Of a stretch of DNA of 44,079 bases, positions 20,097-31,728 are shown in pieces. The stretch comes from Pseudomonadales bacterium (GTDB lineage Bacteria > Pseudomonadota > Gammaproteobacteria > Pseudomonadales > Moraxellaceae), in assembly GCA_013043915.1 (NCBI GenBank), contig JABEVH010000207.1, positions 1 to 44,079 of the forward strand, read 5' to 3'. The stretch's first letter is position 1. Every line of letters begins with the position of its first letter. A model generated the notes under the pieces. That model saw nothing but the letters and a program-made list of their open reading frames with translations. It did not search any database and was not told the DNA's origin. A program made the translations under genes and the position numbers.

Positions 20097-21497
20097 ATGA
20101 GTGTAGCCATGAGCCAGTTGGACAAACTCTGGGGTGGGCGTTTTCAGGAGCCTACAGACAAATTTGTTGAGGCCTTCACCGCTTCTGTGAGTTTTGATCA
20201 ACGCCTGTATCGCCACGACATACAAGGTTCCGTGGCCCATGCCCGCATGTTGCAGTCCGTCGGTGTGCTGACGGAAGCTGAGTGCTTAAGTATTGTCAAA
20301 GGGTTACAGGAAATCCTTGCCGAGATTGAAGCAGGTAGCTTTGAGTGGCGGCAGGATCTTGAAGATGTGCATATGAACATTGAGTCACGCCTGACCAGTC
20401 GCATTGGTGATGCGGGTAAAAGATTACATACGGGGCGTTCACGTAACGACCAAGTGGCCACCGATATTCGCCTTTACCTGCGCGATGCGGTGGATAGATT
20501 GATGCTACAGCTGCGGCAGTTGATGGAAGGCCTGATCAATTTGGCGGAGCTGGAGGCAGATACCATCATGCCAGGGTTCACGCACCTGCAAACGGCCCAA
20601 CCGATTACCTTGGGGCATCACCTTCTGGCTTGGTTTGAAATGCTGATGCGTGACCTGGAGCGTTTTATCGACCTGCGCAGACGCATTAATCGCATGCCCT
20701 TGGGAGCAGCAGCCCTCGCAGGAACCAGCTACCCCATCGATCGGGCCCTGACAGCAAGCCTTCTGGGTTTTGAAGCGGTATGTGAAAATTCTCTGGATGC
20801 AGTTTCAGACCGTGATTTTGCCATTGAATTTGCTGCAGCCAGCAGTTTGGTGATGATGCATTTATCACGTTTTTCTGAGGAATTGGTACTCTGGTCGTCA
20901 GCCCAGTTTGGATTTGTCGATTTGCCAGATCGATTCTGTACAGGATCTTCGATCATGCCGCAGAAAAAGAATCCGGATGTCCCTGAGCTGGTGCGTGGCA
21001 AGACGGGGAGAGTATACGGACACCTGATGTCGCTACTGACCCTGATGAAGTCACAACCCCTAGCTTATAACAAGGATAATCAGGAAGACAAAGAGCCTAT
21101 CTTTGATACGATCGATACCCTGGCAGGTTGTCTGCGTGCCTTTGCCGATATGATCCCGCACTTAAAGCCTCAGCGTCAGCGCATGCGCCAAGCCGCCTTG
21201 CAGGGATATGCCACAGCAACGGATTTGGCTGATTATCTGGTGCGCAAAAACATACCCTTTCGTGACGCTCATGAAATTGTGGGTAAAGCTGTGCGCTATG
21301 GGGTAGACCAGGGATGGGATCTATCGGTGATGAGCCTGGATCAATTGCGTCAATTTTCTCCCGTCATCGAGCAGGATGTTTTCGAGGTACTGACGCTGGA
21401 AGGTTCGGTTGCATTGCGCAAGCATCGTGGTGGGACGGCTCCCGAGCGCGTACGTCAAGCAGTCAAGGAAGCGCGAGACCGTTTGCGTGGGATCTAG
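20097..21497 (+). CDS. argH: Argininosuccinate lyase
   Basis: KLWGGRF at the N-terminus, SRNDQV, and the fumarate-lyase signature [12 protein letters not shown] are all present. An alternative start is ATG 20109. Confidence 0.95.
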
Positions 21498-21499
21498 TT

Positions 21500-22036
21500 T
21501 CAGCGTGCACAGTCCTTTAGGTGGGCTCGGTATAAAATCTGTTTGACCAGCAGTGCCGTGATGGGAAAGCCCAGTATCAGGGCCACAAATGTGGCTCGAT
21601 CAAGGCCAAGTACTGCAAGATAAGCCAAGGCTACACCGATGCCAGAGTCCATCTGGTCAAGCAGCGTAAATGCCAGCGTAAACCGGCTTGATGTTGCTCC
21701 GGGAGGAATGCCTAATCGCCGCTTCAGAAACGAGTTGGGAAGCTCGGCAAGTACATAACCCAGCCCAGCTGCTAGTCCAGCCAGCAGCATAGGGTGGTGA
21801 TGGTAAGGAGAGTGGGGAACCCATTTATCCCACGGCAGTAACAACAGCGTGCCTAACATGCAAAATAGAGGCATTAGTATCAGGCCGCGCCAGGTTTTAT
21901 TTTGTCCGAAGCTGCGAATATGCAGGGGACGTGCGAGTGAAGGCAGCCATTGCCAGGTCACGGCCATCATGTGCAAGACACCAGCGAAGATCACAGGTAT
22001 GAGTAAATAGAAGGCGAGTAAGACAGTTTGCAGCAT
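21500..22036 (-). CDS. CDP-archaeol synthase-like (CarS / DUF46 family) integral membrane cytidylyltransferase
   Basis: It is 178 aa with about 5 TM helices. The blocks GQNKTWRGL and NSFLKRRLGIPPG...LLDQMD correspond to the GDGKTWRG and SFIKRRxG...DQ blocks of archaeal CarS as I recall them. Its start overlaps the upstream stop by 1 nt (TGATG). Confidence 0.7.
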   Translation of the reverse strand: MLQTVLLAFYLLIPVIFAGVLHMMAVTWQWLPSLARPLHIRSFGQNKTWRGLILMPLFCMLGTLLLLPWDKWVPHSPYHHHPMLLAGLAAGLGYVLAELPNSFLKRRLGIPPGATSSRFTLAFTLLDQMDSGIGVALAYLAVLGLDRATFVALILGFPITALLVKQILYRAHLKDCAR

Positions 22037-22659
22037 CAGCTAGCTCTGCCGGTAAGATCCAGAATCAAAAAAAGTAATGCCCCTCCTAACGTTAATGAGA
22101 GTATTTGCCAAAGACGTGTGAACTTGAAAAATGGCCGGTGTAAAAGCATGGCGTGACTAAATAGCAGTAGCAAGATCAGGGTAAGCAGACGCCATAGGTT
22201 GAGAGTCATGATGCCGTGGATGAGCAGCATGGCTGCCAGCAGAAACAGGCTCCAGAATACCGGCATGCCACGGTAGGCTAACCCCCCCCGTGCATCTTCG
22301 ATATTGCCGGTGTCATTGAATACCGCCAAGCGTATTAGACCACAGCCGACCATGAGTATCAGGCCCACAGACCAGAACCCATTAAAACCTTCACCATACA
22401 GGATGAGTGCGGGGCTTAGCAGGTAGATCAGCACATCCATAAAACCATCAAGATAACGGCCAAAAGGACGTACCAGGCCGAGGTGTCTTGCCAGCATACC
22501 GTCAAGGGCATCACCGAGCATGGCTAAAAAAAGCAGGCTGGTTGCCAGCAAGGGGCGATGGGCCAGGCTGAGTGCCATGGCCAGCATGGTGGTGGGTACG
22601 GCGCTTAAGGTAATGAGGTCAACACGATTCAGGCGAACCAGGTAGTAGGGCGAGTTCAT
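22036..22659 (-). CDS. CDP-alcohol phosphatidyltransferase family protein
   Basis: It matches the family motif D-x2-D-G-x2-A-R-x8-G-x3-D-x3-D exactly: DALDGMLARHLGLVRPFGRYLDGFMD. It is a polytopic membrane protein. Confidence 0.85.
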   Translation of the reverse strand: MNSPYYLVRLNRVDLITLSAVPTTMLAMALSLAHRPLLATSLLFLAMLGDALDGMLARHLGLVRPFGRYLDGFMDVLIYLLSPALILYGEGFNGFWSVGLILMVGCGLIRLAVFNDTGNIEDARGGLAYRGMPVFWSLFLLAAMLLIHGIMTLNLWRLLTLILLLLFSHAMLLHRPFFKFTRLWQILSLTLGGALLFLILDLTGRAS

Positions 22660-24218
22660 GCAGGGCGCCTCGCGTTTAAAGACATCTGGCGTAAGGCCGG
22701 GCGATCAATTTTACTCTGATGCCGACCATCGAGGGGCATGGTGTCGATACGAGTTATGGCAATTGTTTCCAGGCTCATCGAGCTCAGCTGCTCATGTACC
22801 TGTTGATCTGGTGTTGAACCTTGCAAGACTAGCAGAGGACGGTCCTGATGCTTAATAAGAGCACAGCGTTCCATGCCAGGCAGGCTATCAATACGCTTTT
22901 CTATAGGATAGGGCCAAAATACTTGACCTGCATGTTCCACAGAGTCACGAAGACGACCTACCAGCCATAATCTGTTCATATCATCCAGATAACCCGCATC
23001 CCCGGTGCGGTGCCAGACACTACCATCGGCTCGCGGTAGCTTGCTTTCCTGCGTGGCTTGGGGATTGTCCACATACCTTTGCAGCACATGCGCGCCACTG
23101 ACGAGAACTTCGCCTATTTGCCCCGAGGGGCAATATTGCTGGCTGGCAATCTCATCAACGGTATAATCCTGATTTAAGGGCCAGATAGCTATTTCAGCCA
23201 GGTCAGCAGCACGTCCTACGAGGTAACCTTCACCGAAATCCCCCTCTTCAACGAGCTCTCGGCAAGGGAGTGTTGCTATAGGTTCAGCTTCGGTTGAACC
23301 GTAGACAGCGATGACCTCAGCGTGAGAAAAAAGCTGTAGCAGTGATTTAGCCAGATGGGTGGACACGGAGGAACCACCAACAGCGACCTGACGAATCTTG
23401 GGAAGTCGCCCATTAGCTTGCTGAGCATAGTGGCAAAGCCGGTTCATGAATCCCGGGGCCCCTGAGAGACGTGTGACACCTGATCGTTGCAGTTGTTCAA
23501 ACAATCTAGCAGCATCAAATTCGGCGGGATGAGCCAAGTCGATGGCAGGTAATACGGTCGGTAGGCCACAACAGAGATTGTGTAGCACCATGACCGGAAA
23601 GCAGGTGCAATCTACATCATCGTCTTGATCCTGCCAGTGCTGACGCATGGCATGATGTTGCGCTAACAGGCTGGTGTGGGTACGGTCAGCCCCTTTAGGG
23701 CGTCCTGTGCTGCCTGAGGTAAATGTAATCAACCCGTGCGCCTGATGCGGTAAGGGTTGGGCGCGGGCTGCTGCCTGTTGACTCAGGTCTAGACGGCGTA
23801 CTCCCCTTGACTGTCCATCGAAGGCCAGTCGACGCATACGCCAGAGCGGGGGTACTAACCACCACGAGCGCAGCAACGACAGCTCACCCATCGCAAAACG
23901 AGCGCCACTGCTGGAGATGGCAGAGAGTATGCGCGAGCGGCTCATTCCCCGATCAAGCAGTACGGCTACCATGCCTAAACCGAGGAGGGCCAGGGTGAGA
24001 ACGTAGAGCTCATAGCGTACACGCGAAAGAATCAGGACACGATCGCCTGCATGCCCACCAGCCTGTTGCAGGGCGTGTTGGTAGCACCCTATATCCTGAA
24101 TCAGGGACTGGTAGGTCCAGCTATGTTCCTGTCCTGATTCATCAGGTAGCGTTAAAGCTATACGGTCAGGGTGTTCCTGGCCAGCTAGAAGGATAGGGCT
24201 CAACAGATTTTTGTTCAT
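22656..24218 (-). CDS. Adenylate-forming enzyme (AMP-dependent synthetase/ligase superfamily)
   Basis: The core motifs are TFTSGSTGRPKG (A3), YGSTEAEP (A5), HRTGD (A7) and the C-terminal lysine block DGRHQSKIDR (A10). Confidence 0.85.
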   Translation of the reverse strand: MNKNLLSPILLAGQEHPDRIALTLPDESGQEHSWTYQSLIQDIGCYQHALQQAGGHAGDRVLILSRVRYELYVLTLALLGLGMVAVLLDRGMSRSRILSAISSSGARFAMGELSLLRSWWLVPPLWRMRRLAFDGQSRGVRRLDLSQQAAARAQPLPHQAHGLITFTSGSTGRPKGADRTHTSLLAQHHAMRQHWQDQDDDVDCTCFPVMVLHNLCCGLPTVLPAIDLAHPAEFDAARLFEQLQRSGVTRLSGAPGFMNRLCHYAQQANGRLPKIRQVAVGGSSVSTHLAKSLLQLFSHAEVIAVYGSTEAEPIATLPCRELVEEGDFGEGYLVGRAADLAEIAIWPLNQDYTVDEIASQQYCPSGQIGEVLVSGAHVLQRYVDNPQATQESKLPRADGSVWHRTGDAGYLDDMNRLWLVGRLRDSVEHAGQVFWPYPIEKRIDSLPGMERCALIKHQDRPLLVLQGSTPDQQVHEQLSSMSLETIAITRIDTMPLDGRHQSKIDRPALRQMSLNARRPA

Positions 24219-25336
24219 GTACGTAGATTCCCGCAGTACAGCGCGTAATGATGCATACGGGTCGTACCATGACGCTGAGCAAAATGAGCCGATGCATTAT
24301 CTTCTCGTACCAGAGCCGCAGCAATCTGCTCATAATGCCCTTGGGCTCGCAAGGTCAGCTCGCAGCTCATGGCGGTGAATAACCCCATGTCCCGGTAATC
24401 GGGATGAACGGCCGCCGTGCGAGCCAGTAACCGACGTGGATGGGGTAACTCGGACCGATGCCTGTCATAGTGCAAAGCTGATAAAGATATCGGCCTTGTT
24501 CCGTGCACGCGCAAAAGTGGGCTGTAGTCAGGATAGGCCAGAAAGAAACCGGCAATAGCACCATCGCTGGTTTCTGCTCTTAGGGAGGTCAGTGGGCAAA
24601 ATCGATCAGCAAAGGGATGACCACAATGATTACGAAAGGCTTTCAAAGATAGCGGCGTATATGCAAAATTGTCGGCAAATGACTGTTGAACAAAATCATA
24701 GAGCTGATCCAGATCCCTTAACCAGTCCTCAGGCAGCATGGGTAGCAAGCGGACTTTTCCTTGCATGCGCTTATTGACGCGTTCAAGGTCCTTGCGAACA
24801 TTGACCACGGTATCTTCTACCGAGGTAAAGGTGGAGAGATAACGGTAACAGGAGGTTAGGCCCAACGATTGCATGAGCTCAGCATAGTAGGGTGGATTCC
24901 AGGGCTCTCCGGGAAATGCACCTGCCTCGAAAGCATCGAGACGCACACGGTAAGCCCCGTAGGTGGTAAAATTGATAGGTCCATAAATTTTCTTCGCCCC
25001 TTTAGCTTCAGCCCAGGTTTTTAGTGCGTTAAATAATGTTGCATTGGCCTCAGGTACATTCATGGTTTCCCAATAACCAAAGAATGCAGCCTGTTCACCC
25101 TGAATAAGCTGCCCAGGCAGTATAAAGCCAGCCAGTCGAGCCTGATGCGGAATCAGTCCCACCCAAGCATGCCCCTGCTCAAACCAGGTATTGGCAACAC
25201 TAAAGGCTTGTTGTACCGATGCAGAGTCTTCACCCAACCAATAGGGATCCTCTGCATAAATCTGAGCAGGCAGATCAAGGAAGTCTGCAGGTAGCGAGTC
25301 CTGCGCAGGATCCCAGGTACCTTGCCATAGCATCAT
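24215..25336 (-). CDS. Hypothetical protein, possible GNAT-fold acyltransferase
   Basis: It is 373 aa and soluble. The C-terminal segment LARTAAVHPDYRDMGLFTAM resembles GNAT motif A (V.P.YRG.G). It overlaps both neighbours by 4 nt. The function is uncertain. Confidence 0.45.
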   Translation of the reverse strand: MMLWQGTWDPAQDSLPADFLDLPAQIYAEDPYWLGEDSASVQQAFSVANTWFEQGHAWVGLIPHQARLAGFILPGQLIQGEQAAFFGYWETMNVPEANATLFNALKTWAEAKGAKKIYGPINFTTYGAYRVRLDAFEAGAFPGEPWNPPYYAELMQSLGLTSCYRYLSTFTSVEDTVVNVRKDLERVNKRMQGKVRLLPMLPEDWLRDLDQLYDFVQQSFADNFAYTPLSLKAFRNHCGHPFADRFCPLTSLRAETSDGAIAGFFLAYPDYSPLLRVHGTRPISLSALHYDRHRSELPHPRRLLARTAAVHPDYRDMGLFTAMSCELTLRAQGHYEQIAAALVREDNASAHFAQRHGTTRMHHYALYCGNLRT

Positions 25337-28044
25337 GAGCTGCTCCGTAATTCTTGGCGTATGATTTTCCCGCTAGAACCATCCATGCGAACATGCTCGC
25401 CATCCTTAATACAACGTGTGATGCCTGGAATGCCGACAATGGCGGGTATACCGAGCTCCCGCGCCACCACGGCCGAGTGGGAAAGTGTCGAGCCGCGCTC
25501 AACCAGCAGTCCGCCAACCGTTGGAAATAAAGGGGCCCATCCTGGATCAGTTCTCATGGTGCATAAGATTTGGCCATTGAGGCTCAGTTCATCTTCGGGA
25601 GAGAAAATAAGCCGCACCGGGGCTTCGACGATGCCCGGGTAACATCCCGTCCCCTTTAACTCTAGTCCATCGGCTGACAGGGCTGAATCTTCTTCCGGTC
25701 CATGATAGGGCCCGGGGTGATTGGCCATACCGTAGGTCCACACCTGGGGCCCGGGTTCCTGATCACTATAACGAGCATATTCCTGCTGTCTCAGTTGAAC
25801 CAGGCCTGGTAGATTAGTCTGAATGGCTCGTCCATCATGCAGCGCATAAATTTCATCCAGGGTCAGATAAAAAATATCGCGGGCTTGAGTTAAGTAAGCA
25901 CTGCTTGCCAACTGCTGCCCTAATTCCAAAAAAATATCTCGGTATAAACCGAATAAACGTGTGCGCGCCAGACGCATGCTCTCACGATAACGAACAGCAT
26001 GGCGCAGTTGTTGCAGTTGGTGCTGAAACCGGCGCAACGGCCGAGAACCTAAGCGTTCCTTGATGCGGGCAAATGCTTGAGCTTCAGCCTCGGATCGGAA
26101 GCCGGCCTCGCGCAGGGTCAATGTGTCCGGACCCAAGTCATCACGGGTCAGATAATTGCGCAAAATGGCAAAGAGAAAAGAGGGATCCTGGCGCAGGGTC
26201 ATAGATTCAAGTTTTAGCTCCCCCATGCACCGGTCACCGTAGCACTCAATATAAGCCTGGCACTGCTCATAAAACGTAGGATCAAGAATCTGTAACCTTG
26301 CCAGTATCATGCTTTGGTCACTGGCCTCGACCAAGGCCCGTGCGGGTGGATGTAGCCTCAGGTAGGCGCACATACGCAGCAGCATCTTGGTGGGTTCAGT
26401 ACTTTCGATGCCCTCTTCACCTGAGAGGAGGTTGTTTTGTAACAATGAGGGCTCAGAAAATCCAGCAGCAACCAGGGTTCGATGTACACGCCCATTCATC
26501 ATCATGACATAGAAATCATTGATGATAGGGGTGGTCCAGCGTTGCAAAAGTTCAAGATCCAGCTGTTTTAAGGTGCTTACCAGGGCTGCACTGTCCAGCG
26601 TATGCAACAGGTTACGGTCGATATGGGCATAGACGTTCTCAAAGTGTTCACGAAAATTGCGAACGCGCGCCTCCATGTTTTGAAAGCCCAAAAAGAGATG
26701 GAACAGGGCACGCAAAACCTGAGGCAGGCGGTGCAGTTTTTCCCGCCAGCTGAACGTGGTGTCCTGAATCAGATCCACAGGCTGAGTCAGGCCCATCATG
26801 CGTTCCATGTCGGCCTTGTTGGTCCGAAATGAGGGCAAAAGCAGAAGGCCACGATACCAGTTATTGATGTTGTAGTAGATGCGTCCATGCAGCAAGCCCA
26901 ACATATTGCCGAGCATGGAGCGATGGGCTTCAATAACGTGTTCAGATATGCCCAGAATACGCATGGTCTGTTCATACACGGTGGCATAGGCTTGGCTAGC
27001 AAAAGAGAACGTCAGGGGAGTCGTGACGCCACAATAGGACTCTTGAATATTGGCATTATCAAATACCGTCAGGGGGGTGGTTTCCTGCGGCGCAGGTAAC
27101 TGGGTAATCGGTCGGGTTTGCAGGATAAAAAATTGACCTTGCCGGTAAGTCCATTCAATATCCTGCGGGGCGCGTTGCAGATGGGCAATGCGTAATCCAA
27201 TATCGCGCAGGTTGAGTATGTTTTCAGGGCTAAGGCAGGGTTCCTGCCGGCGTACCAGATCTACCGTGCTTTCGCAGGTTCCTTGGCCTTTCGCATGATC
27301 AAATATGAGAGCCGTATCTTTCTCGGCGATCTGTGACTTGATATGACTATCAAATAGTCCCACGCTATAATCATCGGCATTGCACAGGCCGCTGACCAGA
27401 CCTTCCCCCAGACCCCAGGTGGCTGAAATCAAAGCCTGGTCCCTCTGGCCAGTGACCGGGTGTGCGGTAAACATCACCCCGGAGACCTCACCGTCCACCA
27501 TATCCTGCAAGATAATGGCAGAGCGTATATCGTCCAGAGGCAAGCCACGTGTCAAGCGATACTGCAAGGCACGGGCATTATAGGCGGATGCGGCTACATG
27601 CAAGATGGCGGCTTCGAGATGGCCAAGTCCTCGCTGAAACAGCAGGCTATCCATCTGACCGGCAAACGAGGCGCCTTCGGCATCTTCGCCGACGACCGAG
27701 GAACGTACAGCAAGGAAGAGGTCTTCACGGCCTGTTAGCCAAGTCTTTAGAGGGTGGCGCAGATCATCAGGAAAAGTAGCCTGATACCAGAGAGACTGGA
27801 TTTGGTGGGCGGCAACTTCGATTTCCTGGAAACTTGACGTGCGATGTATTCCTTGCATAGACCGCTGGATCTGGTCATGCAAACCCAGCTGTTGCAGGAG
27901 CAGTGCCCAGGCTTGGGTGGTAAGCACGGCCCAGCGCGGCACAGCTAGTCCTGCGCGTGTCAATTCAGCTAGATGAGCGGCTTTGCCACCCAGAGCATCG
28001 GTACCTAATCCCAGGGCCTGTTCCTGTGTCAATAACATATTCAT
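25333..28044 (-). CDS. PEP-utilising-enzyme family phosphotransferase with rifampicin-phosphotransferase-like architecture (N-terminal ATP-grasp, central domain, C-terminal swivel His domain)
   Basis: The N-terminus has LGGKAAHLAEL..., AVRSSVVGEDAEGASFAGQ, GVMFTAHPVTG...WGLGEGLVSG and PQDIEWTY..FFILQTRPIT. The C-terminus has GIVEAPVRLI...ILCTMRTDPGWAPLF...GGLLVERGSTLSHSAVVARELGIPAIVG (phospho-His motif). It has no C-terminal PEP/pyruvate TIM-barrel, so it is not a true PpsA. Confidence 0.8.
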   Translation of the reverse strand: MNMLLTQEQALGLGTDALGGKAAHLAELTRAGLAVPRWAVLTTQAWALLLQQLGLHDQIQRSMQGIHRTSSFQEIEVAAHQIQSLWYQATFPDDLRHPLKTWLTGREDLFLAVRSSVVGEDAEGASFAGQMDSLLFQRGLGHLEAAILHVAASAYNARALQYRLTRGLPLDDIRSAIILQDMVDGEVSGVMFTAHPVTGQRDQALISATWGLGEGLVSGLCNADDYSVGLFDSHIKSQIAEKDTALIFDHAKGQGTCESTVDLVRRQEPCLSPENILNLRDIGLRIAHLQRAPQDIEWTYRQGQFFILQTRPITQLPAPQETTPLTVFDNANIQESYCGVTTPLTFSFASQAYATVYEQTMRILGISEHVIEAHRSMLGNMLGLLHGRIYYNINNWYRGLLLLPSFRTNKADMERMMGLTQPVDLIQDTTFSWREKLHRLPQVLRALFHLFLGFQNMEARVRNFREHFENVYAHIDRNLLHTLDSAALVSTLKQLDLELLQRWTTPIINDFYVMMMNGRVHRTLVAAGFSEPSLLQNNLLSGEEGIESTEPTKMLLRMCAYLRLHPPARALVEASDQSMILARLQILDPTFYEQCQAYIECYGDRCMGELKLESMTLRQDPSFLFAILRNYLTRDDLGPDTLTLREAGFRSEAEAQAFARIKERLGSRPLRRFQHQLQQLRHAVRYRESMRLARTRLFGLYRDIFLELGQQLASSAYLTQARDIFYLTLDEIYALHDGRAIQTNLPGLVQLRQQEYARYSDQEPGPQVWTYGMANHPGPYHGPEEDSALSADGLELKGTGCYPGIVEAPVRLIFSPEDELSLNGQILCTMRTDPGWAPLFPTVGGLLVERGSTLSHSAVVARELGIPAIVGIPGITRCIKDGEHVRMDGSSGKIIRQELRSSS

Positions 28045-30776
28045 AACACCGTTCCCTCATGAGACCAGAGATCCCGAAAACTGCGGTAGGCTCGCTCCAT
28101 GAATCCATAGTGACGGAAGGTGTGTGCCATCAGATACAGGGGCATGCGGGTTACCATGATATCCATCAGAGCCAGGGTGTAGCCGCGACGCCAACGAACC
28201 GGATCCAGCGTTTGCCCGCTGTGACGCTCAAGTTCTTGTCGATGCAGCTCGATATAGTGTTCTACATCATGGGTATCTACCGGGTCATACAGCGTAAAGC
28301 CTAGCAACTCCACCAAATCATGTTGAGGAAGATGTAAGGTGGCTAGTTCCCAGTCATAGGCACATAGCCGCAAACTGCCGTCTTTCAGGCGACGGAAGGC
28401 GATATTGCGCGGATTAAAGTCATTGTGGACCAGGGTACGTGGCATGGTTTCGATCTCAGGCCACCAGTGCTCAAGGGTATGAACAACGCTGCGAAACTTC
28501 GACAGGTCATCTTCTGAGAACCATTCTGGAAACTCTTCCCGGGCATGTGCACCGAGCAGTTCCCAGAGTCGAAGTTTGTCCTGCATGCCATGGGCATGAG
28601 GGTAATCGACCAACCAGGGTTGCTGTTTGAGTTCATCTTCGCGCCCAAGCCAGATACTGTGAACTTCGGCTATGCCCCTAATGGCGGCATCAATATGTTC
28701 GCGCGTCCAGGAGGACGTATCATCCGCTGTGTCCATGAGTTCAAGCCAGGTCAGATGTTCCTGGATGAGTACATAGGCCTCACGTTCAGTATCGGCAAGT
28801 ACGCCGTAGGTGATAGGTGCATGACGCTGAAAGCGTGGATCCTGCTGGCTCATGACCATCAGTTCACGCGTATGACAGCCCCGGAATCCCAAGTGTTGCT
28901 TGCAGCGGTTGAACTCTTGCGCCAAACGGGGGTTGCACATGGCGGCAAGGCTATTGAGCATGAGAATGACTTCGTCATCCAGGGGTTTGATCTTGACCAT
29001 CACATCCAGGTTGCCGGCGCTAGTTTTGAGCCGAAAAGGAAAGTGCCCCAGGATTTTATTGACTTTGTGAGAAGTCAGTTCGGTGATAATGCTTGATCCC
29101 GCCATCTTGATGGTTAGCGCAGTAACCTCCTGCACACGCAGCGTATGTAACCCGGTAGCTGCGATAATGCTATCGAAGAACTGCGCATCTAGCTGACCGA
29201 GTTTGAGATGATCGACCGGTCGATTGCGCCCGAGTTTTTCATGGGCGCGTGCAAACTGGTCAGAAGCGATGGCAGACAGGGTAGAGATATCCAGGGCAAG
29301 ACAGTAACCAGCCATAATTTCAGCCAGCTTATGGGCCTTACCGGGGCCAGCACAGCCCATGATGTCCAGGCATTCACGTTGTTGTGGCAAATTGGTACCA
29401 CCTCCTACGGTACCTATGACCAGGGAGGGTAACATCATGGTGCAATAGACATCCCCAGCTTCGGTGAGCTCCATATGCAGTTGGGCCAAGGCTGACTCAT
29501 GAACACAGGCAATATCCTGACCCAGAGCCGTGAAGAGAGCGGCGATCACGTTGGCAACGTTGATGTTCATACCGACCATGCCGCCAGCAATTGATCCGGC
29601 ACAACAGTAGTTGTAGGCGGAAACCAGTTGCCTTGGCGATACTTTCAGGATGCGCTCACAGATGTCTTGTCGAAGCAGCGCTTCGGCGACGACACGTATG
29701 CCCCGGCCATTTAAGAAGGTCTGGTAGGTCACCTTTTTGTCGTTGGACAGATTGGCATCGATGAGAAAGTTCTCAACGCGCAGCCCCTCAAATCCCTGAA
29801 TAGATTTCAGGATCCATTGGCAAATCTGCCAGCTGCATGTAGTCGTCATGTTCTGTCCGGCAGCATCGCCAGTACGATAAATCAGGTGTACATGCACAGA
29901 CCTCCCAAAAACAAAGGGACGCACGGCACGCAGGCTTGCGTAGTTGGAATAGCGCTGTGTTTCGGTTGCCATTTCATCAAAGTGATCCTTCACCCACTCG
30001 GCAAAAAAAAGGGCATTGGCCATGTCACCGAAGACAAATACCGGCACCCGCATCATGCGCTGCTCAATCACGCGAGCTGCGACGCCCCCGGATCGCGACA
30101 GCGCTGTGGCTCCCCGCGTTGTTGAAGCCACCAGAGCTCCCTCAGACGTGGCCATGGGTGCATAATACAGACCTTGCGCGTGTTCTCCGCGCAGATGCAA
30201 GGGACCGGCGATGCCGACGGGAACCTCTACGGAGCCAATCAGCGCCTCGATATTACTGACGAGCTTGCGTGGATCCAGGCTAAGCTTACTCACCGATTCA
30301 AGCTGACAACGCGTTTGTTCGCGTACAAATCCCAAACGTTCCTGTCGCGCCTCTTCGGTATAAAGACCTCGCGCCGGTATCTTGGGTAAATTGGTTTCAT
30401 CATAAATCGTGGGGTCGGATGGGGTGTTGCAAGAGCGCATCAGGTAACAGATTTCCCAGAGCTGATGGCGTGTCTCCGTACAGTCATCGCCATGAAGGAA
30501 TAATTCCCAGCCCCCTTCCTTGCGCTCTACACAACGGTGTACAGACATTCCCGGTATTTCAAAACGCCTGGATTCAACATCCAGTTGCAGTTCGCTAAGA
30601 TGTTCTCCCTCCTCAGGCGGTTCCTGTCTGGCATCAAGCCAGCAGATTAGCTGATTGCGGCCGATAGCATGAGGCGTGGCTTGAATGGGCTTTCCTTGCG
30701 TGGTCCAAGCTTGAATACGAGCACCCGCCGTAAATCCATAACGCGTGGTGTATCCGTAAGCAGGTAATTGTGACAT
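28041..30776 (-). CDS. Tri-partite fusion: unknown N-terminal domain (~130 aa), class-I-like HMG-CoA reductase catalytic domain, and C-terminal APH-type (aminoglycoside/choline-kinase-like) phosphotransferase domain
   Basis: HMGR blocks are IEALIGSVEVPVGIAGPL, MATSEGALVAST, DAAGQNM, SNDKKV...NGRG, GTVGGGT and the C-terminal His (ARAHEKLGRN). The kinase catalytic loop is LVHNDFNPRNIAF, and the metal-binding motif is AYDWELA. Confidence 0.8.
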   Translation of the reverse strand: MSQLPAYGYTTRYGFTAGARIQAWTTQGKPIQATPHAIGRNQLICWLDARQEPPEEGEHLSELQLDVESRRFEIPGMSVHRCVERKEGGWELFLHGDDCTETRHQLWEICYLMRSCNTPSDPTIYDETNLPKIPARGLYTEEARQERLGFVREQTRCQLESVSKLSLDPRKLVSNIEALIGSVEVPVGIAGPLHLRGEHAQGLYYAPMATSEGALVASTTRGATALSRSGGVAARVIEQRMMRVPVFVFGDMANALFFAEWVKDHFDEMATETQRYSNYASLRAVRPFVFGRSVHVHLIYRTGDAAGQNMTTTCSWQICQWILKSIQGFEGLRVENFLIDANLSNDKKVTYQTFLNGRGIRVVAEALLRQDICERILKVSPRQLVSAYNYCCAGSIAGGMVGMNINVANVIAALFTALGQDIACVHESALAQLHMELTEAGDVYCTMMLPSLVIGTVGGGTNLPQQRECLDIMGCAGPGKAHKLAEIMAGYCLALDISTLSAIASDQFARAHEKLGRNRPVDHLKLGQLDAQFFDSIIAATGLHTLRVQEVTALTIKMAGSSIITELTSHKVNKILGHFPFRLKTSAGNLDVMVKIKPLDDEVILMLNSLAAMCNPRLAQEFNRCKQHLGFRGCHTRELMVMSQQDPRFQRHAPITYGVLADTEREAYVLIQEHLTWLELMDTADDTSSWTREHIDAAIRGIAEVHSIWLGREDELKQQPWLVDYPHAHGMQDKLRLWELLGAHAREEFPEWFSEDDLSKFRSVVHTLEHWWPEIETMPRTLVHNDFNPRNIAFRRLKDGSLRLCAYDWELATLHLPQHDLVELLGFTLYDPVDTHDVEHYIELHRQELERHSGQTLDPVRWRRGYTLALMDIMVTRMPLYLMAHTFRHYGFMERAYRSFRDLWSHEGTVL

Positions 30777-30786
30777 ACGCGCAGCC

Positions 30787-31728
30787 TTAAGTTCCGTGGG
30801 CTGTCAGGCAGACAGCCATGATGACGCCATACCCCATCAGCATATTCATGGCAACGGCTTTTTCATTAGCTTTGCGCTGAGCGCTGGAGGGGTTGTTCTG
30901 GTAGTGATGTACTTGTCGTAGGGCCATGGCCCAACTTGCAATGATCAAACCCAGCATCCATAGCGGTAACTGCGGAAACAGTTCAAGCAGCAGGGCGCTT
31001 TGCAACAGCAACATGCCGGACACCAACCCCATGATGACCTTGGCGGCGAGGTGAGGGCCAAAAATTTTTGAGTAGGAGTCGACTCCTTCCTGTTCTTCCT
31101 CGGGTCCTTTGGTTTTGCGAGTGATTTCAAAGCAAAAACCGCTGGCAAAGGCCAGTAACATAAGCGTGATCAGAGAGGTATCTGGCAGGATGGAGGGAAC
31201 GGCCATTCGGGCCAGCCAGAAAACAATCAGGGGCATGACCAGCATATGTGAGATGGCATACCAGGTCAGGTGGCGAGTTAACCAGTCAGCTATAAAAAAT
31301 TCACGGGTCATCAGCACAGTCCAGGTAGCCATGATGCCCCAGGCGATGAGAATGGCTCCATGGGCATCGAAAACAAGAGCAAATCCCACTTGCATGAGTA
31401 CGCAGAGAAGAGCTATCCACCTCAAATCGCGTAGCGTGATCAGTCCTTGCTGTAATACCCGTTCAGGGTGGTGCAGGCAGTCACCGCTATAGTCCTTATG
31501 TTCATCCAGAATGCGTAGCGTTAAAAAGAAACTCCATGTCACTAAAGCACCCAGCACATCATAGGCATGCAGTAGTGGCCTCAGATGCATGGTTTGCCTG
31601 CTGACCACCGCCGTGGTGGCGTACAGGATAAAAAACAACAGGGCATTGGGGAGAGCAAAGCGTTCATGAACCCAGGCCATAAAACGTTGAACCCAGGGGC
31701 TTTGAAGGGTTAGTGAATTTGAAGGCAT
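30787..31728 (-). CDS. UbiA-superfamily prenyltransferase-like integral membrane protein
   Basis: It has 8-9 TM helices. The first Asp-rich loop is RILDEHKDYSGD...HPERVLQQGLI, and a second acidic loop is EEEQEGVDSYSKIFG. It is the first gene of the operon. Confidence 0.65.
   Translation of the reverse strand: MPSNSLTLQSPWVQRFMAWVHERFALPNALLFFILYATTAVVSRQTMHLRPLLHAYDVLGALVTWSFFLTLRILDEHKDYSGDCLHHPERVLQQGLITLRDLRWIALLCVLMQVGFALVFDAHGAILIAWGIMATWTVLMTREFFIADWLTRHLTWYAISHMLVMPLIVFWLARMAVPSILPDTSLITLMLLAFASGFCFEITRKTKGPEEEQEGVDSYSKIFGPHLAAKVIMGLVSGMLLLQSALLLELFPQLPLWMLGLIIASWAMALRQVHHYQNNPSSAQRKANEKAVAMNMLMGYGVIMAVCLTAHGT

Follow-up and report, generated by a model that had tools for sequence, protein, structure and literature searches.

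A CarS-like gene and its partner close a seven-gene run

We analyzed a stretch of 44,079 nucleotides from a Pseudomonadales bacterium of the family Moraxellaceae (assembly GCA_013043915.1, contig JABEVH010000207.1, positions 1 to 44,079 of the forward strand; hereafter the window), with a focus on two overlapping genes for membrane proteins. The upstream gene of this pair (22036..22659, reverse strand) encodes a cytidine diphosphate (CDP)-alcohol phosphatidyltransferase of 207 amino acids, which belongs to a PssA-like subfamily whose acceptor pocket is changed. The downstream gene (21500..22036, reverse strand) encodes a CarS-like membrane protein of the cytidine triphosphate (CTP)-transferase family, 178 amino acids long and with five predicted transmembrane helices. 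CarS makes CDP-archaeol, and a CDP-alcohol transferase then swaps cytidine monophosphate (CMP) for a polar head group. The two genes are the last of seven that point the same way on the reverse strand, from 31728 down to 21500, and that overlap or nearly abut.

The junction of the two genes was read directly from the sequence. The plus strand has CATCA at 22034-22038, which on the coding (reverse) strand is TGATG; the TGA stop codon of the transferase gene occupies 22038-22036 and the ATG start codon of the CarS-like gene 22036-22034, with base 22036 common to both. A first-pass annotation of this DNA had reported the shared nucleotide, in agreement with these coordinates, and had also described the genes as "fused in register." The latter description does not apply to the window: the two open reading frames (ORFs) occupy different frames, and the genes are therefore joined by a stop/start overlap (translational coupling) and not fused, in-frame fusions being found only in relatives. 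A one-base gene overlap is by itself common in operons. At its other end, the stop codon of the CarS-like gene converges on that of argH, which lies on the plus strand and ends at 21497; the 2 nucleotides between the two genes leave no intergenic space for a terminator, and a terminator scan listed no site near this junction.

The 178-residue protein has the motifs and fold of the CarS family

The sole Pfam match of the 178-residue protein was PF01864, the CarS-like family, with 24.5 bits against a cut-off of 22 (E 3e-5) over profile positions 42-173 of 175. PF01148, the CdsA family, gave no match at E<=0.01, as compared to 204.6 bits for the genome's own CdsA. Relatives of the protein exceed it on PF01864, as seen for Peredibacter (53.4 bits), and the score on the archaeal equivalog model NF003114 was 38.7 bits, missing the cut-off of 148. 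The protein carries the blocks NKTWRG (residues 46-51), SFLKRRLG (102-109), and LDQMDSG (126-132). The first-pass annotation had already recognized KTWRG and SFLKRRxG...DQ blocks, and we found them to be invariant or nearly so in 119 family members; fully invariant in this 119-sequence alignment are K47, T48, R50, E98, P100, N101, S102, K105, R106, D127, D130, and S131. When a profile of 24 family members was compared with solved structures, a single match was obtained, to Aeropyrum pernix CarS (ApCarS; 5GUF, E 0.0074), in which GANKTWRG is aligned with GDGKTIEG, SFLKRRLGI with SFVKRRLGI, and LLDQLD with LLDQLD.

Structure prediction agreed with this assignment. An AlphaFold2 model computed from the 119 sequences (predicted local distance difference test [pLDDT] score of 93.3) has five long helices, and a Foldseek search with this model returned 5GUF first (template modeling scores of 0.60/0.67), with all other structures at or below 0.32. 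In an exhaustive structural scan (VIA), 5GUF was matched over 143 residues with a Z score of 13.0 and a root mean square deviation of 2.8; the second match was the catalytic core of Thermotoga maritima CdsA (4Q2E), whose Z score of 6.6 is at the same level as those of generic helical bundles. The invariant residues lie on or beside two loops that are assigned to the cytoplasmic side by the hydropathy profile and the positive-inside rule; in ApCarS, the cavity for CTP, Mg, and K sits on its two cytoplasmic loops (PMC9385802). Roles of single catalytic residues were taken from the alignment and from that review. The 178-residue protein is thus CarS-like rather than CdsA-like, as had been proposed at first pass, by sequence and by fold, and the match to CarS is one of family and fold, not of orthology.

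The bacterial CarS-like proteins form a clade apart from archaeal CarS

A phylogeny with archaeal CarS and bacterial homologues had been suggested as a check, and we built a tree of 73 sequences. Three of these are named as archaeal, all from Bathyarchaeia, so that the archaeal sample is small and from one phylum. A branch with a Shimodaira-Hasegawa-like approximate likelihood ratio test (SH-aLRT) support of 99 separates 39 bacterial operon-type sequences, the window protein among them, from the 34 others. The latter half includes the Bathyarchaeia CarS sequences together with homologues from Patescibacteria, Omnitrophica, and Spirochaetota; the sequences named as Patescibacteria, Peribacteraceae, and Saccharimonadales (candidate phyla radiation [CPR]) fall with archaeal CarS. 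Because the window protein lies in a separate, all-bacterial clade and scores far below the NF003114 cut-off, it is not an orthologue of archaeal CarS. A second, very divergent CarS-like protein from a Marinobacter sp. (P0282, 160 amino acids) is placed with the archaeal and CPR sequences by a long branch of 2.55, which suggests that genes of that clade may also occur in some Gammaproteobacteria.

The partner retains the CDP-alcohol transferase motif but not the serine site

The 207-residue protein matches PF01066 with 50.1 bits against a cut-off of 22, and its motif D50-x2-D53-G-x2-A-R58-x8-G67-x3-D71-x3-D75 is intact. D50, D53, G54, A57, R58, G67, D71, and D75 are invariant in 43 homologues, and the enzyme looks catalytically competent on this basis. 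It scores below all NCBIfam equivalog cut-offs (TIGR00473 [pssA], 58.7 versus 107; NF038087, 55.8 versus 240), and the nearest solved structure is the phosphatidylserine synthase of Methanocaldococcus jannaschii, MjPSS (7B1K/7POW, E 9e-15). Ala59 and Ser63 have been assigned to the reactive serine site of MjPSS (PMC8633023). In the alignment to 7POW/7B1K, Ala59 is replaced by Arg68, Ser63 by Gly72, and Arg104 by Val113, while Arg101 is kept as Arg110; Arg68 is nearly invariant in the subfamily of the window protein. These replacements suggest that the acceptor is probably not serine, and an anionic acceptor would be a reasonable guess and no more.

A crude hydropathy scan of the transferase gave overlapping segments, from which seven hydrophobic stretches were counted by eye; in the alignment to MjPSS, which has eight helices, the match does not reach helix 8. 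The C terminus of the transferase would accordingly be placed in the periplasm, which is where the N terminus of a CarS protein with five transmembrane helices and cytoplasmic loops should begin, an arrangement that would permit fusion of the two proteins. This predicted topology draws on the hydropathy scan, the MjPSS alignment, and published work (PMC8633023, PMC9385802).

The two genes are adjacent across related loci and repeatedly fused

The family comprises 838 protein clusters at 90% identity (E<=0.001), and a scan of species-representative genomes yielded 80 related loci. Homologues of the transferase recognizable by tblastn were present in 51 of these and lay directly upstream of the CarS-like gene in 50 of the 51; it is this adjacency, and not the one-base overlap, that goes beyond chance. 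At 15 of these 50 loci the transferase and the CarS-like protein are encoded by one ORF of about 390-400 amino acids, and the unfused genes mostly overlap by 8 or 11 nucleotides. Diverged transferase homologues such as that of locus L085 were missed by tblastn, and a profile hidden Markov model was used instead, which detected a CDP-alcohol transferase at 58 of the 80 loci. The loci added by this model include diverged Bacteroidota, in which the transferase gene lies downstream of the CarS-like gene or is separated from it by the reductase/kinase gene described below.

A search among longer proteins recovered 47 clusters of fusions between PF01066 and CarS-like domains, about 400 amino acids in length, for example, from Endozoicomonas and Zooshikella. 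P0166 and L040:9317-10483 are two of the natural fusions. The transferase is always N terminal and the CarS-like domain C terminal, and one protein of 942 amino acids (P0138) is a triple fusion of AMP-binding, PF01066, and CarS-like domains. When the fused or separate state was mapped on the tree of CarS-like domains, seven changes were required on the best tree, and at least two are forced by well-supported branches. Other domain combinations were seen among the longer relatives: in P0173 (318 amino acids) a divergent PAP2 (DUF212) domain is joined to the CarS-like domain, and in P0169-P0172 (about 400 amino acids) the CarS-like domain follows an N-terminal part of 200 amino acids without a family assignment, with P0170-P0172 labeled "dolichol kinase" by JGI.

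The pair exists beside the housekeeping phospholipid genes

The first-pass annotation had called for a search for a normal cdsA elsewhere in the genome, the assembly of which is 86% complete. The canonical cdsA was found in the gene order frr-uppS-cdsA-dxr, and three further PF01066 genes are present on other contigs, and PF01864 was found only once in the genome. Because the genome has this cdsA and three other CDP-alcohol transferase genes, the pair in the window is additional to CdsA and not a replacement for it. The family searches, the phylogeny, and the search for cdsA, all of them checks proposed at first pass, thus favor the first-pass interpretation, the word "fused" apart.

We also looked for genes of isoprenoid and ether lipid synthesis. 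The gene ispH of the methylerythritol phosphate pathway was found, and no HMG-CoA synthase was detected in the 86%-complete genome. No match above the cut-off was obtained in this genome for geranylgeranylglyceryl phosphate synthase (GGGPS)/PcrB, the best being one PF01884 fragment with 20.4 versus 23.9 bits, and no such gene is present in the operon. The ispH (LytB) match (G000:C241:141-985 [L092/L093]) is split into two adjacent pieces, 141-707 (profile positions 1-176) and 722-985 (180-267); possible causes are disruption of the gene, a frameshift, and an error in the assembly.

Five further genes of the operon encode predicted transferases, a reductase/kinase, and a ligase

The first gene of the operon (30787..31728, reverse strand) encodes a UbiA-family membrane prenyltransferase (PF01040, 35.3 bits versus 34.2; NF004617, 218.7 versus 239). 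It is followed by a gene (28041..30776, reverse strand) for a protein of 911 amino acids in which an HMG-CoA reductase (HMGR)-like reductase (PF00368, 390 bits) is fused to an APH-type kinase (PF01636, 32 bits). Since ispH is present and HMG-CoA synthase was not found, the HMGR-like domain is unlikely to serve a mevalonate pathway. The third gene (25333..28044, reverse strand) encodes a phosphotransferase resembling phosphoenolpyruvate (PEP) synthase and RPH, with ATP-grasp and phospho-His swivel domains (PF01326 and PF00391; NF004883, 1346 bits). Pfam gave no match to a PEP/pyruvate-binding domain in this protein, which also matches the models for rifamycin phosphotransferase, PigC, and RedH, below their cut-offs.

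The fourth gene (24215..25336, reverse strand) encodes a protein of 373 amino acids with no Pfam or NCBIfam match. Its AlphaFold2 model (pLDDT 95.0) was matched by Foldseek to tandem GNAT structures (7Q3A and 2WPW), MshD (1OZP), FemX, and aminoacyl-phosphatidylglycerol synthase, with E values of 1e-11 to 1e-7, and an alignment profile gave a weak match to the GNAT protein 3C26 (E 0.0017). The homologues from loci L013, L024, and L045 were left out of this alignment (A4), as they contain an internal stop near the C terminus (a script artifact or a frameshift). Because the model has the tandem GNAT fold, the protein is predicted to be an acyl- or aminoacyl-transferase. An AMP-forming acyl-CoA ligase family protein (PF00501, 157 bits; NF006754, 484.9 versus 478) is encoded by the fifth gene (22656..24218, reverse strand), which overlaps the transferase gene by ATGA.

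An operon with an extracytoplasmic function (ECF) sigma factor gene lies directly upstream of the seven-gene operon. The GC content of the latter is 51-56%, similar to that of its flanks. A promoter scan found 4 promoter-like sites versus 10.2 expected from shuffled sequences and a terminator scan 12 terminator-like sites versus 9.6, results that are uninformative.

The operon is patchily distributed and occurs in several variants

The full seven-gene order was found in about 40 of the 80 loci. Its carriers include Fluviicoccus, Agitococcus, Marinobacter, Pseudomonas, strain HdN1, Hahella, Zooshikella, Ketobacter, and Thalassolituus, and further Oleispira, Photorhabdus, Kosakonia, Limnobaculum, a metagenome-assembled genome of Burkholderiales, and Spirochaetota. 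Including the window's own genome, 5 of 151 sampled genomes of the same order have the CarS-like gene, and it was found in none of the 3 other genomes of the window's family. The operon is a patchily distributed accessory operon; despite this distribution, base composition gives no sign of a recent transfer. Many carriers of the operon (loci L011, L012, L025, L027-L033, L037, L041, L042, and L054) are from groups known as marine hydrocarbon degraders, namely strain HdN1, Marinobacter, Alcanivoracaceae, Thalassolituus, Oleispira, Bermanella, and Ketobacter, and a tie of the operon to alkane or fatty-alcohol metabolism is possible. The record title of one Moraxellaceae carrier (L018) contains the word "diesel."

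Gene content varies around the pair. The HMGR/APH fusion or the RPH-like phosphotransferase was encoded in the fetched flanks of 75 of the 80 loci; a kinase near the CarS-like gene at so many loci is consistent with a requirement of the CarS-like protein for a phosphomonoester. A minimal cassette at four loci (L021, L040, L041, and L054) consists of the HMGR/APH fusion, the tandem GNAT, the CDP-alcohol transferase, and the CarS-like protein; these loci have no ligase or RPH-like gene, and no UbiA gene was seen in the fetched flanks. In the cassette of the Bacteroidota locus L085, the tandem GNAT is replaced by an unrelated protein of 326 amino acids. A further variant, in Bdellovibrionota, combines genes for the CarS-like protein, UbiA, the RPH-like phosphotransferase, a cytochrome P450, and a distant homologue of the 373-residue tandem GNAT protein (E 5e-10). 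In Peredibacter sp. HCB2-198 (L072:9956-16213) the genes stand in this order, no CDP-alcohol transferase or HMGR/kinase gene is present in the 10-kb flanks, and genes for MacB/FtsX ABC transporters and for a LolA-like protein are found upstream in divergent orientation.

Discussion

Taken together, these data suggest, with moderate confidence on our part, that the CarS-like protein and its partner catalyze consecutive membrane steps of a specialized phospholipid pathway, in which a lipid phosphomonoester made by a kinase is converted to a CDP-lipid and then to a phosphodiester. The first of these steps would be that of a CTP:lipid-phosphate cytidylyltransferase: the CarS-like protein would take the phosphomonoester supplied by the upstream enzymes of the operon and, with CTP, form a CDP-activated lipid alcohol and pyrophosphate. 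The CDP-alcohol transferase would then transfer the phospho-lipid moiety to an acceptor hydroxyl with release of CMP, giving a phosphodiester lipid.

The remaining genes suggest how the phosphomonoester could arise. The acyl-CoA ligase would convert a carboxylate to a thioester, which the HMGR-like domain would reduce to a primary alcohol, and this alcohol would be converted to a phosphate ester by the fused APH kinase, the RPH-like phosphotransferase, or both. UbiA and the tandem GNAT protein could add prenyl and acyl or aminoacyl decoration, and the pair would act beside, not in place of, the housekeeping CdsA/PssA/PgsA enzymes. From the gene context, we infer a lipid-phosphate substrate outside the range of CdsA, Pss, and PgsA, as the first-pass annotation had also supposed; the pair probably acts on a new substrate, and the seven-gene operon probably makes an undescribed membrane phospholipid. 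More tentatively, and with somewhat less than even confidence, we propose that this product represents an undescribed class of bacterial phospholipids, whose core would derive from a reduced acyl thioester that is phosphorylated and activated by a CarS-type enzyme and would contain no acylated or alkylated glycerol phosphate.

Several points weigh against the two-step pathway proposed for the pair. The PF01864 score of the window protein is barely above the threshold. At 22 of the 80 loci, mostly from Bdellovibrionota, no CDP-alcohol transferase was found in the fetched flanks; at such loci either some other enzyme must use the CDP product or the function of the CarS-like protein must be a different one. 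The CTP-transferase superfamily includes CTP-dependent lipid kinases, among them dolichol kinase, phytol kinase, and other polyprenol kinases, and the chemistry is not readable from sequence. Finally, in the literature searched we found no biochemical or genetic data on any member of the clade and no paper characterizing the clade or the operon.

We consider it unlikely that the two proteins are redundant or stress-induced isoenzymes, the CarS-like protein converting phosphatidic acid to CDP-diacylglycerol and its partner converting this to phosphatidylserine or a similar lipid. The relation of the transferase to PssA-type enzymes and the ECF sigma operon directly upstream are consistent with such a role, as is the observation that CarS activity in membranes of Methanobacterium thermoautotrophicus was little selective between ether and ester substrates or between glycerol 1-phosphate and glycerol 3-phosphate forms (PMC9385802). 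However, purified CarS of Archaeoglobus fulgidus (AfCarS) strongly favored digeranylgeranylglyceryl phosphate (DGGGP) over phosphatidic acid and did not complement E. coli cdsA (PMC9385802), and the reductase/kinase, ligase, UbiA, and GNAT proteins of the conserved operon would be superfluous for the activation of phosphatidic acid. The replaced serine-site residues of the transferase (Arg68, Gly72, and Val113) and its score below the PssA cut-off argue in the same direction.

It is quite unlikely, too, that the roles of donor and acceptor are reversed, in which case the acceptor of the transferase would be the alcohol made by the operon, its donor would be a soluble CDP-alcohol or the CDP-diacylglycerol of the housekeeping pathway, and the CarS-like protein would act on a different intermediate. 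Some CDP-alcohol transferases do take a lipid as acceptor, for example, the choline/ethanolamine phosphotransferases (8GYW was among the structural matches of the transferase), and the acceptor-pocket Arg, which is nearly invariant, suggests that the acceptor is anionic and possibly phosphorylated; such a reversal would, however, leave the stoichiometric domain fusion and the strict adjacency without a simple rationale.

A further alternative is that the CarS-like protein is itself a CTP-dependent lipid-alcohol kinase, which would supply UbiA or other enzymes, and not the adjoining transferase, with a phosphorylated prenol or alkanol. The membership of CTP-dependent polyprenol kinases in the superfamily and the "dolichol kinase" label on some longer relatives speak for this role, and so do the Bdellovibrionota loci, where a CarS-like gene, UbiA, and a phosphotransferase occur without a CDP-alcohol transferase in an arrangement like phytol salvage of the VTE5/VTE6/UbiA type. 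Yet recurrent in-frame fusion to a CDP-alcohol transferase, a class defined by CDP-activated donors, would be hard to explain for a kinase, PF01148 is not matched, and the operon already encodes one or two other kinases. We therefore regard this role as very unlikely overall, and as possible notably for the Bdellovibrionota variant.

That the protein is a genuine CDP-archaeol synthase, and the operon one for archaeal-type isoprenoid glycerol ether phospholipids with UbiA as DGGGP synthase, is very improbable: the CarS fold and motifs, the UbiA-family prenyltransferase, and the resemblance of the partner to archaetidylserine synthases (NF038087) would fit, but the protein misses the NF003114 cut-off by far and is separated by the SH-aLRT branch from Bathyarchaeia CarS, GGGPS/PcrB was not matched above the cut-off in the 86%-complete genome or found in the operon, UbiA scores 29.6 versus 269 on NF009523 (PRK12884; named "prenyltransferase" in the model library, and which we take to be a model of the archaeal DGGGP synthase type), and the reductase/kinase, ligase, and GNAT proteins have no role in archaeol synthesis.

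We return to the favored reading, a CTP-dependent activating enzyme that serves its own head-group transferase, and compare it with known systems. The archaeal couple of CarS (5GUF, AfCarS) and archaetidylserine synthase (MjPSS, 7B1K) is similar in family, five-helix fold, and aligned K-T, S-x2-KRR-x-G, and D-Q-x-D blocks, in having a PssA-type partner with a full motif, and in its logic, by which CTP activates a lipid phosphate and a head group then replaces CMP. It differs in that the window protein is only 22-25% identical to ApCarS and belongs to its own bacterial clade, that the operon adds the reductase/kinase, ligase, RPH-like, and GNAT enzymes, which archaea do not use for lipids, that the serine-site residues of MjPSS are replaced, and that the 86%-complete genome yielded no GGGPS match above the cut-off. 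Bacterial CdsA with PssA or PgsA shares the superfamily, as reflected in the 4Q2E core match, and the two-step chemistry; CdsA has 9 helices, in contrast to about 5 here, the CarS-like protein has no match to the CdsA family PF01148, and the pair is additional and patchy (5 of 151 genomes of the order).

A single-chain precedent for the fused relatives is provided by IPCT-DIPPS (AfDIPPS/Af2299 of Archaeoglobus fulgidus), in which a cytidylyltransferase and the CDP-alcohol transferase that consumes its product are likewise joined. The cytidylyltransferase of IPCT-DIPPS is, however, a soluble N-terminal domain of the nucleotidyltransferase fold that acts on a water-soluble inositol phosphate, whereas the fused relatives carry an integral-membrane domain of the CarS fold at the C terminus. 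In the Caulobacter ceramide diphosphoglycerate pathway (PMC12275187), the nucleotidyltransferase CpgD acts as a CTP:phosphoglycerate cytidylyltransferase. There is again a dedicated cytidylyl activation within a specialized anionic lipid operon, with the standard phospholipid machinery also present; CpgD activates the head group and not the lipid and is not a membrane protein of the CarS family, so that the parallel is one of logic only. The couple of a CTP-transferase and a CDP-alcohol transferase is thus of a known kind, and what is new is the distinct bacterial clade and its recurrent natural fusions.

In the textbook view, lipids are activated with CDP by CdsA in bacteria and by CarS in archaea. 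The window reveals a distinct and widespread bacterial clade of CarS-type proteins that occurs together with CdsA and is linked with a head-group transferase of its own and with a reductase/kinase module. Under the more tentative proposal of a new phospholipid class, the clade would add a third route to CDP-lipids, next to those of CdsA and archaeal CarS, and its proteobacterial carriers include culturable ones such as Photorhabdus, Marinobacter, Kosakonia, Hahella, and Fluviicoccus. Because several carriers are in culture and amenable to genetic work, the question is testable. The fused forms offer natural models of how a CDP-lipid could be passed from one membrane enzyme to the next. If the proposed chemistry is also correct, many Proteobacteria, Bacteroidota, Spirochaetota, and Bdellovibrionota would contain an unrecognized membrane lipid, with possible relevance to envelope stress, to hydrocarbon degradation, and to host association, Photorhabdus being an insect pathogen.

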